In this document: positions 571-42,186 of the stretch, piece after piece
How the letters are laid out: each line of letters starts with the position of its first letter
Numbering within the stretch: the first letter of the stretch is position 1
DNA from: Octopus vulgaris
Lineage: Eukaryota
Direction of reading: 5' to 3'
Assembly: GCA_951406725.2 (NCBI GenBank)
Contig: OX597837.1
Span: forward strand, 11,842,001-11,906,000
DNA length: 64,000 bases
Program-made: the position numbers and the translations under genes
Notes under the pieces: model-generated
What the model was told of the DNA's origin: nothing
The model's database searches: none
What the model saw: only the letters and a program-made list of their open reading frames with translations

Positions 571-614
571 ACACTTGATGAAGGCTGGAGGGTATATCAG
601 CCGAAACGTTGTGT
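571..614 (+). ncRNA. Minimal hammerhead ribozyme with C3>U, in a Penelope-like fragment (~521-660)
   Basis: acac-TTGATGA-a-GGCTG gagggtatat CAGCC-GAAA-CG-TT-gtgt; palindromic AACGTT. Confidence 0.65.
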
Positions 615-2220
615 TAACAACAAACAAAATTAGGACAAATATCCGTCAAATGTAAATAATGCATATACTGTCAGTATTTAATTACCAGCAGTAATTAAAA
701 TATCAAATCATTCACATTGTAAATAGTTCAAACGAACGCCACCACCATCAACAATAGCAAGATCAACACCTACAAGGAATGTATTTTAATATTCAAGCAT
801 TTAAACAAAAGAATATAAAAGGACTACAAACGGCAGTGACTGACTACAATAACAGCGGCAATAAACGAGTTTTATTAGTCAATTGTGTAACAACAGATTA
901 TAACACATGAAAAGAGCTGTTTAGCTCAAGTGGCTAGATTCGTGTGTGTGCACGTGAGAGATATGTTTGTCAGCAATGACAGTGGATTGATGACGTCATC
1001 GAATTTCTTAGGCCAAAATTAAGTCATGTTAGTTCCTGCAGCTGGCGGATTTTAAGCTGTGTTGGTTACCAGACAAACGATCTATACATACCGAAGGATC
1101 TGTCAAAGAAAAGGCGCCAAAGACAAAATTGTTAATGACATTCTTATGCATGCCGGGCAAAATGCTTAGTGGAACTTTATCCGTCTCCAAATTCTGAGTT
1201 CAAATTCCACCAGGGTCAACTTTACCATTCATCTTTTTTGGTGGGGAGGGGGTCAATAAAATAAATACCAGTTATGCATTGGGGGTTGATGTGATCGATT
1301 TACCTTCTCCCCCTTAAATTACTGGCCTTTTGCCAAAGTTTGAAACCACCACCACCACCACCACCACCACCACCATCATCATCATCGTCATCATCAATAT
1401 CATTATTAATATTATTATCATTATCATTATTATTATTATTATTATTATTATTATTATTATTATTATTATTATTATTATTATTATTATTATCATTATTATT
1501 ATTATTATTATCATCATTATCATTATTATTATTATTATTATTATTATTATTATTATTATTATTATTAGGCGGTGGTAGGCTGGAAGGATCATTAGCACAC
1601 CGGGCGAAATGCTTTATGGTATTTCGCCTGTTTTCATGTTCTGAGTTCAAATGCCGCCGAGGTCGACTTTGCCTTTTATCCTTTCGAGGTCTATGAATTA
1701 AGTACCACATAAAAAGTAATGGTATGAGTCCCATCTAAAATGCAGTGGTGATGGTCCCACGTAAAAAACATTGGTGGGAAGCATGATTCTTACCCCGTGC
1801 AAAACGATTCTGACTGAATGAAATGTCTTATTAAAATTAGGGTAACGAGGAGTTGACGGTAAAGAAAATAAAAGGAGAGGTCCACAACGAAATAAGTTTA
1901 GGAACCGCCGTGGTCGAGGCTTGAACTTCGTTTAGATTGGTTTATAAACTGTGATCAACAACTTCAAACAACGACAAATAACGTTGTCAGAGTTCGGTGA
2001 GCGGGAGTCAGTCCCCAGGTGCCGCTTTTATAAGGGTCGGCACTTTGGGGTCAGCTGTATACACTAGCGTAGGGAGGAACGGTAGGGGCGGTCTGCCCCG
2101 GTCGGCACTTTTGGGCCTGCTGTAAGTAATATGTGTTTTTTTTTTTGTGGGGTCCGGGGGCAGCAAACGGAAGGGCCGCTCCAGGTGACACACACACTAG
2201 CTACGCTGTGACTGTATAAA

Positions 2221-3108
2221 GGCGGCGAGCTGGCAGAAACGATAGCACGCCGGGCGAAATGCCTAGCGGTACTTCGTCTGCCGTTACGTTCTGAGTTAGT
2301 AAATTAAGTACCAGTTACGCACTGGGGATCGTTTGTCTGTCCTTGTTTGTCCTCTCTGTGTTTAGCCCCTTGTGGGTAGTAAAGAAATAGGTATTTCGTC
2401 TGCCCCTACGTTCTGAGTTCAAATTCCGCCGAGATCGACTTTGCCTTTCATCCTTTCGGGGTCGATACATTAAGTACCAGTTACGCACTGGGGTCGATAT
2501 AATCGACTTCATCCGTTTGTCTGTCCTTGTTTGTCCTCTCTGTGTCTAGCCCCTTGTGGGTAGTAAAGAAATAGGTATTTCGTCTGCTGCTATGTTCTGA
2601 GTTCAAATTCCGCCGAGGTCGACTTTGCCTTTCATCCATTCGGGGTCGATAAATTAAGTACCAGTTACGCACTGGGGATCGTTTGTCTGTCCTTGTTTGT
2701 CCCCTCTGTGTTTAGCCCCTTGTGGGTAGTAAAGAAATAGGTATTTCGTCTGCCGCTACGTTCGGAGTTCAAATTCCGCCGGGGTCGACTTTGCCTTTCA
2801 TCCATTCGGGGTCGATAAATTAAGTACCAGTTGCGCACTGGGGTCGATATAATCGACTTCATCCGTTTGTCTGTCCTTGTTTGTCCCCTCTGTGTTTAGC
2901 CCCTTGTGGGTAGTAAAGAAACAGGTATTTCGTCTGCTGCTATGTTCTGAGTTCAAATTCCGCCGAGGTCAACTTTGCCTTTCATCCTTTCGGGGTCGAT
3001 AAATTAAGTACCAGTTACGCACTGGGGTCGATATAATCGACTTCATCCGTTTGTCTGTCCTTGTTTGTCCTCTCTGTGTTTAGTCCCCATGTGGGTAGTA
3101 AAGAAATA
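2221..3108 (+). mobile_element. SINE family A, head plus tandem body multimer
   Basis: ggcggcgagctggcagaa head, B-box-like gagttcaaattcc, central gcctttcatcctttcggggtcgataaattaagtacc, repeated ~170-185-bp bodies; TSD tgtataaa. Confidence 0.85.
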
Positions 3109-3379
3109 TGTATAAACCTGTATAAGCCTACAGGGCCCGCGGGAGTAGGGCCCTGAACACAACAGCTGACTCGGACAATACGCGCTCTGGATACGTTAAT
3201 GACAACGACGACGTCTAAGAGAAATGTCAGGCAAATGAAACTGCTGCTGTGATAGTCAGTCGGAGAAGCAGTTGTGCGACCGGAATTCGTCTGTCAGAGC
3301 ATTTGCTGTGATTAGCTGTGGCTAAGATATCACAGTAGGAAAGAAGCAGCTGCTTAGGTCAGATCTTCAGGTGGAGACC

Positions 3380-3406
3380 ATGGATTTTCACTGGCGAAGC
3401 AAAGAG
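3380..3406 (+). CDS. TTC38: TTC38 coding exon 1 (MDFHWRSKE)
   Basis: gagaccATGG start context; GAG|GTGACT donor; phase 0 fits exon 2; short W-R-containing N-terminus as expected for the family. Short exon, so less certain. Confidence 0.75.
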
Positions 3407-39305: not shown

Positions 39306-41681
39306 TCCATTTAGACAACTAAATGAAAACCAATGGCACAGTTATATTTAGTTACCACTCATACAAAGGTTTTATTTTCTGGTGTGCTTGCAAAGAGCTG
39401 TTGAGTCAAGTGAAGTCGTCATCAAGGCTGATGCCAATAGTGATGGACCGGCACCCATGCTGCTGACACATAACAAGCACCATTCAAGCGTGGTCGATGC
39501 CAGTACAGTCTGACTGGCTCCCAAGCCGGTGGTATGCAAAAAGCATCATTCAAGCATGGTCGATGCCAATGCCGCCCGACTGGCTCCCATGCCAGTGGCA
39601 CGTAACAAGCACCATTTGAGCATGGTCAATGCCAGTGGCACGTAACAAGCACCATTCGAGCGTGGTCGATGCCGCTACTGCCTGACTGGTCCCCATGCCG
39701 GCGGCACGTAAAAAGCCCCCCACTACACTCTCGGAGTGGTTGGTGTTAGGAAGGGCATCCAGCTGTAGAAACTCTGCCAGATCAGATTGGAGCCTGGTAC
39801 AGCCTTCTGTCCTCAGTCAAACTGTCCAACCCATGCTAGCATGGAAAGCGGATGTTAAATGATGATGATGAATGAAACAGAAAATACATTAAAAAAACAT
39901 CTTTAAATATAACTGATGGTAGCAATGGTAAATACACGCATACAAGTATTTTTTTCCCCTGGTTTCATGTATCATGAAGGAATTTTTGTTTTGGAAAAAT
40001 TCTTTTAATAATGAAATGGAAAATAAATCAAAATAGCATCTTTACTGTTGCTAATCACCAGTATTTAAAACATGAACCAGATTATCAGAGTGGAAGAAGC
40101 TAACCCAAAATTATTTATTTAACAGTGTCAAGAGCTTTATTCCACACAGACTGATAACCTCTCAAACTGATCAAAGAGGCCATGGCAGGAGGGCCTGGTG
40201 GGGTTAGAGAGAAAGACACTTCAAGTTTATCTCCTAGTAACAAAGATTAAAAACGAACAAAAAAATAAAAACGAGTTTGTTTTTTTTTCCCCTCAAGGCC
40301 ACAAACTTCTAGAGTTGGTTGGTTATCTCTATAACCTAATATGGGACATGTGAAACAAAAGCAAAGTTGAGATTTGAACATGGAACGTGGCAGTTCACAT
40401 GGGGCACTGGCACTCCTGTCTATTGCACTTCCTGCTGATTCTACCAAAAATAATAATTCTAAATTTTTGGCCCGAGACCAGCAATTTGGAAGGGAGTAAG
40501 ATAGCCAATTACAATTGACCCCCCCAAAAGGATGAAAGGCAAAGTCAACCTCGATGGAATTTGAACTCGGACCATAAAAACTGATGGAATGCTACCAAGC
40601 ATTTTGATGTGTGATAAGAATTCTAATATAATAATAATCCATACCACTATAAGCACAAGGCCTGAAAAAATGGGGGGGGGTAGCAACAAATCAACCTCAG
40701 GACTTATACTTCGTAAGCCTAGTACTTATTCTATCGGTCAGGGATATAAATACATCACCATCGGTTGTCAAGCAATGTTGGGGGAACAAACACACACATA
40801 TATATATATATATATACGATGGGCTTCTTTCAGTTTCCGTCTACCAAATCCACTCACAAAACTTTGGTCGGCCCGAGGCTAAAGCAGAAGACACTTGTAC
40901 AAGATGCCACGCAGTGGGACTGAGCCAGGAACCATGTGGTTGGTAAGCAAGCTACTTACCACACAGCCACTCCTGTACCTATTTACATAAGCAAAAGCAT
41001 ATCCAAGTTCCTTGAGATGGGCCATCTCCAGAAAGAAGAGAAAAAAAATAAAAGCACATTCAAACGGTGCCATTTCTTTCCAGATCTCCACACAATCATG
41101 TCCAGTCTGTTTACTGTTCAACAGACCATGCCCAGAAACAGGTGAGAATTGGTTCTTCCGGCCAAAGAAAACTGCCCTCAATGTGATCTTATTGGTCTCA
41201 TGCGTGGAAAAGTAGATGTCAAGACGAGGTGAACACAACAGTAACTCAATGACTCACAATTTTCATTTTTTCAATCATTTCAGCAAGGGGAACAAATCTA
41301 GGCATGCTTCAGTCTTACTAGACCTCCTTAGCAGAACATAGACATTCACCCAAACCTGCTGAAATAGTGGTGAAGGAATCAGCTACTGATTGAACAATGT
41401 TGTACATTACTTCATTCGTTTTGCCTCCGTTTCTTTCCAGGCTTGCATGGGTTAGATGAGATATGTTATTGAGGCAGCTCTACAGTTGGATACACAGCCT
41501 GTCACTAACCCTTACCTGTTTTTTCAAATAAGGGGTCTCTTATTTCACATATCTTTGATGGAACAAAGAAAGCATATAACTGGTTGTGAAGACATGTGAT
41601 AACATCACCATCACTCAAAGCAAGTAGCAGACTTCTATACAGCTAAATGATGATATATATGATATATATATATATATATGA

Positions 41682-41910
41682 CGGCGAGCTGGCAGAAACG
41701 TTAGCACGCCGGGCGAAATGCGTATCCATATTTCGTCTGTCGATATGTTACGAGTTCAAATTCCGCCGAGGTCGACTTTGCCTTTCATCCTTTCGGGGTC
41801 GATAAATTAAGTACCAGTTACGCACTGGGGTCGATGTAATCGACTTAATACCTATGTCTGTCCTTGTTTGTCCCCTCTATGTTTAGCCCCTTGTGGGCAA
41901 TAAAGAAATA
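41682..41910 (+). mobile_element. SINE family A full-length monomer (others at ~30708, 49155, 52465, 61147; many decayed copies)
   Basis: complete head-body-tail ending taaagaaata; the copy at 61147 has a flanking duplication gaaataggtataaaaccag. Confidence 0.85.
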
Positions 41911-42125
41911 TATATACATATAACTTTATAAAATTTATAAATTTGAATAGTGTTCACTTCTGGATCCTCTCACTCTGTGAAAGTTTCTAGTTCGAATCAC
42001 ACGTGTCTCGAGATGTGCCGAAGATTTTCTATTTTGGATATATTTGGGGTACTTAGGTCTGCTCAGGACTTAGTGTTTGCTTTTGCCATGGGTATGAGTA
42101 AGTATTTCATTTATGTCTTACGTAT

Positions 42126-42186
42126 TTATCGCTGACGAGGAGAAAATTCTTATGAATTAACCCCGAAATTGGGACCAATACGGTAA
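42126..42186 (+). ncRNA. Type I hammerhead ribozyme, intact core
   Basis: stem I ttatcg/cggtaa; core CTGACGA; stem II gg(a)g...cccc extended by aattc/gaatt; GAAA; stem III attg/caat; cleavage triplet AUA (after 42180). Confidence 0.75.

Follow-up and report, generated by a model that had tools for sequence, protein, structure and literature searches.

Five hammerhead motifs around the octopus TTC38 gene

A 64,000-nucleotide stretch of Octopus vulgaris contig OX597837.1 (assembly GCA_951406725.2, positions 11,842,001 to 11,906,000; called the window here and numbered from its first letter) holds the coding exons of the host gene TTC38 and five hammerhead ribozyme-like sites, in DNA of 41% GC crowded with short interspersed nuclear elements (SINEs) and simple repeats. 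The sites are named by core position and strand as H1 (575+), H2 (17551+), H3 (17924−), H4 (30001−), and H5 (42132+). A preliminary description of the sequence had placed a type I hammerhead at each of them. All five could be located, and four have the form of the minimal hammerhead ribozymes (min-HHRs) of Penelope-like elements (PLEs), whereas H4 had been mis-parsed and failed every full descriptor (Table 1).

A min-HHR descriptor requiring G at position 10.1 and a palindrome between A15.1 and U16.1, with positions 3, 6, and 8 relaxed, matched exactly four times on the two strands of the window, at H1, H2, H3, and H5. Block-shuffled controls gave a mean of 0.04 matches, and none of 200 reached four; with A6 required, H1, H3, and H5 were matched (shuffle mean, 0.02; 0 of 200). 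All four sites have helices I and II with G10.1-C11.1, a U-H site, and a short palindromic helix III, which for H2 is intact in the family majority and not in the window copy, and H1, H3, and H5 also carry the core C/U3-U-G-A-N-G/A8-A together with GAAA. A first general descriptor recovered H5 with its perfect core at a helix I of at least 6 bp and, when a single change in the core was allowed, H1 (0 of 40 shuffles each). H3 appeared once the settings were loosened (6 of 40), but the resulting total of 3 was not significant (shuffle mean, 0.95; 4 of 40 as high). H4 was recovered by a half-site rule alone (core, 4-bp helix II, and GAAA), which 6 of 200 shuffles also satisfied. No second copy of the H1, H2, H3, or H5 segments was found by BLAST within the window. 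Exact-pattern scans of viral contigs (H1, H2, and H3), metagenome contigs (H1 and H2), and prokaryote genomes (H2 and H5) gave no matches; octopus sequence would not be anticipated in these collections.

Chance matches to a short pattern, as an account of the whole set, would fit the loose descriptors, which match as often in shuffles, the weak folding z-scores of the motifs (an unremarkable −0.44 to −1.84), and the silence of Rfam. No hammerhead stood among the 150 Rfam matches listed of 171 for the whole window, and local scans of H5, H1, and H4 gave a hammerhead at H4 alone, below threshold (Hammerhead_3, 12.3 bits, E of 6.3, gathering threshold 48.5); the remaining Rfam matches listed were microsatellite-driven microRNA matches. 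Seven descriptors were run on the window, and because these and the helix rule for H4 were composed after the sites had been seen, the shuffle figures are optimistic. Against chance stand the four min-HHR matches, a number attained in none of the 200 shuffles, and the letters of the H2 family described below, whose majority lies nearer the consensus than the window copy at two positions, which chance would not be expected to produce. We regard chance as an extremely unlikely source of the set.

Table 1. Hammerhead motifs and associated features, in window coordinates
Feature	Position	Strand	Basis or remark
(AAT)n tail of another repeat (93-488), precedes H1 segment	489..520	.	Sequence
H1 host segment, directly after (AAT)n	521..660	+	Single copy in window; 3' boundary approximate
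H1 minimal type I hammerhead motif	570..615	+	Predicted cut after 610
TTC38 (host gene), coding-exon span	14981..37319	+	Mapping of Octopus bimaculoides TTC38 coding exons
SINE 5' part around H2/H3 pair	17342..17510	+	92% match with intact copy 30968-31136
H2 element, 3' end of high-copy family, 5'-truncated, ends at (TA)n	17507..17680	+	Contig depth block, loose ends
H2 minimal type I hammerhead motif, damaged copy	17546..17583	+	Predicted cut after 17578
(TA)18 tract, meeting point of H2 and H3 element 3' ends	17681..17716	.	Sequence
H3 element, 3' end of second high-copy family, 5'-truncated	17717..17940	−	Contig depth block, loose ends
H3 minimal type I hammerhead motif, U3-A8 compensatory core	17892..17931	−	Predicted cut after 17899
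SINE 3' part around H2/H3 pair	18004..18186	+	90% match with intact copy 31191-31376
H4 unit, ~240 nt, low GC, with 25-nt terminal direct repeat (84%)	29763..30027	−	Sequence comparison
H4, likely canonical-type hammerhead relic	29961..30017	−	Core 30001-29995
Diverged second fragment of H4 unit, 116 nt, without hammerhead	33263..33378	−	Score 85
H5 host segment, flanked by TA runs 41908-41915 and 42319-42330	41925..42318	+	394 nt, no open reading frame, single copy in window
H5 type I hammerhead motif	42126..42186	+	Predicted cut after 42180

Two high-copy families meet tail to tail

The H2 and H3 elements, lying tail to tail, demonstrably interrupt a SINE at its TA tract; an uninterrupted copy of the same SINE at 30968-31376 has a TA/TG tract in its middle. 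The window copy of H2, which has a 4-bp helix II and a 5-bp helix I, departs from the consensus in its helix III palindrome and at positions 6 and 8 of the core. H3 has a U3...A8 core, an A-CCGG-U palindrome, a 7-bp helix I, and a helix II of only 2 bp, which is a common length (PMC3088659).

Four public runs (X4, X10, X18, and X22) were aligned to positions 17490-17970 at 80% likeness. Contig pieces from the first three, which bear three different organism labels, numbered 7107, 2690, and 1480, respectively, and formed two blocks, at 17507-17676 and about 17711-17948, flanking (TA)18. In X4, summed depth peaked at 3.8 million over H2 and 0.5 million over H3, compared to about 50 for most single listed pieces. 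This suggests rough copy numbers of tens of thousands for H2 and about ten thousand for H3, summed depth itself not being a copy number. The earlier proposal of several unrelated hammerhead-bearing repeat families holds, with at least two (H2 and H3) found by contigs to be high copy.

Of the contig depth over the H2 family in the three runs, 94, 98, and 99% carries G at position 8, and 80, 90, and 94% has an intact helix III palindrome; because these majority letters restore both features, the window H2 is a decayed copy. Position 7, which is a free position, varies, with A in 4 to 13%. In the H3 motif, no alternative letter made up 12% or more of contig depth, and U3-A8 is therefore the state of the H3 family.

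Loose contig ends 5' of the H2 block continued into common nonrepeat sequence in 20 to 60 contigs of X4 and X10 (agreement, 0.58 to 0.69), as did those 5' of the H3 block in 9 and 4 contigs (agreement, 0.86 to 0.89), so the window copies of both were cut short at their 5' ends. Variable 5' truncation combined with a fixed 3' end was found for both families, the 3' end being taken from where depth stops, as the alignment tool discards loose ends that fall in the TA tract. Three contig joints connect the H2 and H3 blocks by their 5' ends, placing the two families next to each other in the other order at other loci. A head-to-tail joint of the H2 element, of the sort that a partial tandem pLTR arrangement would give, occurs in one contig and nowhere in the window.

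A U6 core in the H2 family

At core position 6, the H2 family carries U in 97.8, 98.8, and 99.6% of depth in the three contig runs and A in only 0.5, 0.6, and 0.1%; the window copy has G, and five X22 reads, from two start places, have A6. The published min-HHRs of metazoan PLEs have A6 in 56 of 56 example rows, from a descriptor that demands it (PMC4209133), in contrast to U6 in this family. Lacking the A6 of a PLE minimal type I hammerhead, H2 is classed as a variant and not as a plain member. Literature searches turned up no natural U6 core, which is weak evidence, since descriptors demand A6 and the largest PLE hammerhead variant survey, that of Lunse et al., may list one. A natural A6C hammerhead exists in phage Bcep176 (PMC3088659, PMC7151607); it shares with the H2 family a natural change at core position 6 but has C rather than U, and it is one motif of a phage, where the H2 family is an animal repeat present in many copies. 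In one test ribozyme, the A6C change lowered activity by about five orders of magnitude at 0.3 mM Mg2+ (PMC7151607).

The U6 core, seen here as sequence, is predicted to weaken self-cutting by the H2 family. It is rather unlikely that U6 instead marks an active, tuned-down or metal-selective ribozyme that was kept while the family spread to perhaps tens of thousands of copies. In that case, one of the most abundant repeat families of octopus would carry a working hammerhead that standard descriptors miss, having U where A6 is nearly invariant, and the rare A6 relatives of the family could serve as a natural pair for asking whether cleavage helps or hinders the spread of Penelope elements. A very successful family changed at position 6 either spread without working cleavage or uses an undescribed core, and both bear on the role of the hammerhead in PLEs, which has been called unclear (PMC8557442).

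H1, H5, and AT microsatellites

H1 has a U3-U-G-A-U-G-A core, an extra A after A9, a 6-bp helix II, an A-CG-U palindromic helix III, the site GUU, and a 5-bp helix I. H5 combines its perfect core with a 6-bp helix I and a 5-bp near-palindromic helix III containing one mismatch, which by eye appears to resemble the hammerheads of the Hydra clade of PLEs.

Four of the sites had been described as bordered by (TA)n or (AAT)n, and targeting of AT microsatellites had been proposed. H2 and H3 adjoin one common (TA)18 tract at their 3' ends, and H5 is flanked on both sides by short TA runs, 211 nt away and, on the 3' side, 133 nt away. For H1, the only nearby run is (AAT)n, 53 nt to the 5' side, with none nearer than 812 nt on the other side, and the nearest AT microsatellites to H4 lie 1644 and 1127 nt away. 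Insertion in a TA tract is direct for the H2/H3 pair and for the three further side-by-side joints of the two families; because 21% of random 45-mers also have a comparable AT run within 150 nt, enrichment in the window by itself is modest support.

The (AAT)n tract beside H1 belongs to a dispersed repeat (93-488, +), intact copies of which end in (AAT)n. H1 was rejected as a part of this repeat, as the other intact-tailed copies are not followed by H1. Further places of the repeat are 1-24, 27766-27368 (−), 55039-55383 (+), 62319-62644 (+), and 21125-20754 (−), giving four further long copies within the window. The repeat resembles the 3' end of a long interspersed nuclear element (LINE), since two copies have common additional 5' sequence, and positions 1-488 consist of two copies head to tail.

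H4 as a probable retrozyme relic

H4 had been parsed with a long mismatched helix III and a bulged helix I. This parse was rejected, RNAfold recovering an extended helix I adjoining the core, and a type III parse was rejected by eye for its weak stems. In the RNAfold structure, helix II of H4 has 4 bp and is capped by a CAAUA loop, and helix I is in two parts, each of 5 bp, separated by an internal loop. Just three bases separate GAAA from helix I, so H4 lacks a U16.1-H17 cleavage site. An extended helix I of this kind arises in 1.7% of random flanks, under a rule set after the structure was sighted.

The 25 nt before the H4 core, which form the 5' strand of helix I, recur 240 nt downstream with 84% identity and delimit the H4 unit. 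A second fragment 3.2 kb away scored 85, compared to a shuffle maximum of 74 (0 of 1000 as high) and 73 for the best of 1090 other tiles. Folded as a 240-nt circle, the unit had a z-score of −2.4, with 5 of 200 shuffles as low. In what looks like a canonical-type hammerhead with a 4-bp helix II and two-part helix I, and in its low-GC unit of about 240 nt, which is terminally redundant and pairs with itself when folded as a circle, H4 resembles the animal non-LTR retrozymes (LTR, long terminal repeat) (PMC7229834; 10.64898/2026.07.22.740005), of which those of cnidarians are 220 to 240 nt long (PMC7229834). It differs from them in having a single remaining hammerhead without a cleavage site, in forming no intact tandem array, and in being known from DNA alone. 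No intact dimer or tandem array of the unit was found in the window; active retrozymes as defined by Li et al. contain two or more successive units whose hammerheads are complete, and H4 has one incomplete motif. Judged by these features, H4 probably represents the decayed unit of a non-LTR retrozyme, a relic rather than an active member. Octopus is not mentioned in the main texts of the two retrozyme studies (PMC7229834; 10.64898/2026.07.22.740005). That H4 taken alone is a chance match, as its half-site in 6 of 200 shuffles might indicate, has a minor though appreciable probability, and the three further features of H4 speak against it.

Terminal inverted repeats of about 15 nt lie at 30064-30100 and 33225-33262, with 5 of 8 flank letters alike, and the interval 30064-33262, in which SINEs are nested, is possibly an old hAT-like DNA element. 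The H4 unit and its second fragment were possibly once adjacent and later split by this element. A small perfect-ended hairpin at 30031-30063, just upstream of H4 on the minus strand, is missing at the matching place in the 240-nt unit.

Relation to Penelope-like elements

We consider it probable that H1, H2, H3, and H5 are 5'-truncated 3' ends, or remnants of pseudo-long terminal repeats (pLTRs), of four PLE families, with H4 a retrozyme relic. The min-HHR consensus has an extra base after A9, G10.1-C11.1, and a palindromic helix III (PMC4209133). Likenesses to these metazoan motifs include the type I form, the extra base after A9 (H1 and H2), G10.1-C11.1, a very small palindromic helix III, cores with U3-A8 or U3-G8, the occurrence of many unrelated families in one genome, and a preponderance of solo copies from truncated elements (PMC4209133). 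Both kinds of core occur in PLE-linked rows of Fig. S3 of that study, and the H3 (U3-A8) and H1 (U3-G8) cores therefore count toward a Penelope origin. The octopus motifs differ in that none of the 56 example rows comes from octopus and no open reading frame (ORF) is linked to them in the window. Min-HHRs, mostly solo copies, showed no cleavage in vitro as monomers and low cleavage as dimers (PMC4209133), and each of the five octopus copies, on its own, is predicted to have little or no activity.

Hydra-clade PLEs, including Hydra-1_Obim of Octopus bimaculoides, resemble the window families in their octopus host and (TA)n insertion preference; their hammerhead lies about 100 nt from the 3' end, and its near-palindromic helix III of 4 to 5 bp with a 1- to 2-nt loop is like that of H5 (PMC8557442). 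By eye, the hammerhead row of Hydra-1_Obim differs in sequence from all five motifs, which on this basis belong to other families. Identity with Hydra-1_Obim (compared on that row), Naiad_Obim, and Naiad_Ovul was rejected by eye and by motif search. Hammerhead-bearing elements of this kind were known (PMC4209133, PMC8557442), and both a hammerhead and a (TA)n preference are published for Hydra-1_Obim (PMC8557442), so this is not a new system: these are new families of a known kind of element, an ordinary footprint of PLEs. Four look like 5'-truncated tail ends rather than complete short retroelements, and H4 is of another type. In the literature, no cephalopod hammerheads were found beyond those of Craig et al. 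A study of O. vulgaris repeats reports 31 Penelope-like families with recent activity, which fits a Penelope origin; its main text has no mention of hammerheads or ribozymes (PMC13282606), and the families described here should be useful for octopus repeat annotation.

Several results weigh against a Penelope origin. The Rfam search and the late composition of the descriptors have been described above. No reverse transcriptase or GIY-YIG motif, a linkage that the preliminary description had proposed to look for, was found in the six frames of the window, and no ORF adjoins any of the five sites; absence of a reverse transcriptase/GIY-YIG ORF is what is expected of truncated copies. A search for 6 short motifs in the supplement of Craig et al. 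matched none, though line breaks could hide a match. The raw-read run X22, which has the same species label as the window, gave 10 reads from 12.9 million records, none of them 99% alike, a count that misfits a high-copy family unless the run is from another genome or was filtered. Stem covariation, also named as a check, was not seen in H2 and H3: no stem position varied at 12% or more of contig depth, which is conservation without covariation and could mean no more than that a single master copy spread recently.

Alternatively, the segments could be SINE-like nonautonomous hammerhead elements that depend on a LINE such as Dong/R4 or RTE for their movement, and not Penelope tails or passengers. 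The missing Penelope ORF and the position of H1 after the (AAT)n tail of another repeat would agree with this, as would a genome rich in LINEs and SINEs in which Dong-R4 has recently been active (PMC13282606). We nevertheless judge it distinctly unlikely, because the motif details agree with those from PLE terminal repeats (PMC4209133), H2 and H3 extend 5' in other copies, and H1 does not stand behind other intact-tailed copies of the 93-488 repeat.

Under a Penelope origin, a full-length element would be transcribed, and its hammerheads would cut tandem transcripts as dimers, an activity that is established for such motifs, though low. The GIY-YIG endonuclease of the element would then nick an AT-rich repeat, and the reverse transcriptase would copy the RNA from its 3' end by target-primed reverse transcription, usually stopping early. 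Early stops could leave tails of 150 to 400 nt containing the hammerhead. In this scheme the enzymes, any cleavage, and the connection with a Penelope ORF are inferred, as is the standing of H1, H4, and H5 as families.

The host gene and neighboring repeats

A translated exon in the window is 93% identical to TTC38 of Octopus bimaculoides. The TTC38 intron at 16538-18367 holds H2 in sense and H3 in antisense orientation, and the intron at 28723-33378 holds H4, antisense; relative to the mapped coding exons, H1 lies 14 kb upstream of the first and H5 4.8 kb past the stop. The placement of ribozymes inside host pre-mRNAs was thus correct for three of the five sites, two of which are antisense, with the core of the sense copy damaged. 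Active retrozymes or ribozymes acting on host RNA, by cutting pre-mRNA or forming circular RNA, would be in keeping with the sense orientation of H2, the perfect core of H5, one contig that joins the H2 element head to tail (17660 to 17511), and the circular RNAs made by mollusc retrozymes (PMC7229834). Weighed against the damage to intronic H2 (changes at positions 6 and 8 of its core and a disrupted palindrome), the antisense orientation of H3 and H4, the missing cleavage site of H4, the inactivity of single min-HHRs in vitro (PMC4209133), and the lack of an intact tandem array at any of the five sites in the window, such activity is very unlikely. With the core damaged in H2, the sole intronic copy in sense orientation, we predict no cutting of TTC38 pre-mRNA at any of the three intronic sites.

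Convergent with TTC38, exons of a PHD-finger gene lie at about 48780-62200 (−), with PF20826 at 54180-54458; this gene may be PHF20-like. Short tandem arrays occur at 2330-3113, 5682-6527, 25011-25560 (184-nt period), 23469-24093 (157-nt period), and 8398-9076 (166-nt period). The 184- and 157-nt arrays are composed of SINE parts, and descriptor scans found no hammerhead motif in the short arrays. Frames at 10929-11480 (−), 36019-36345 (+), and 62947-63453 (+) look by eye like the ends of CR1/L2-type and RTE-type LINE proteins, with no Pfam match at an E value of 0.01. A Pif1-type helicase fragment at 7630-8181 (−; Pfam PF21530, E of 2e-15) is probably a Helitron remnant.

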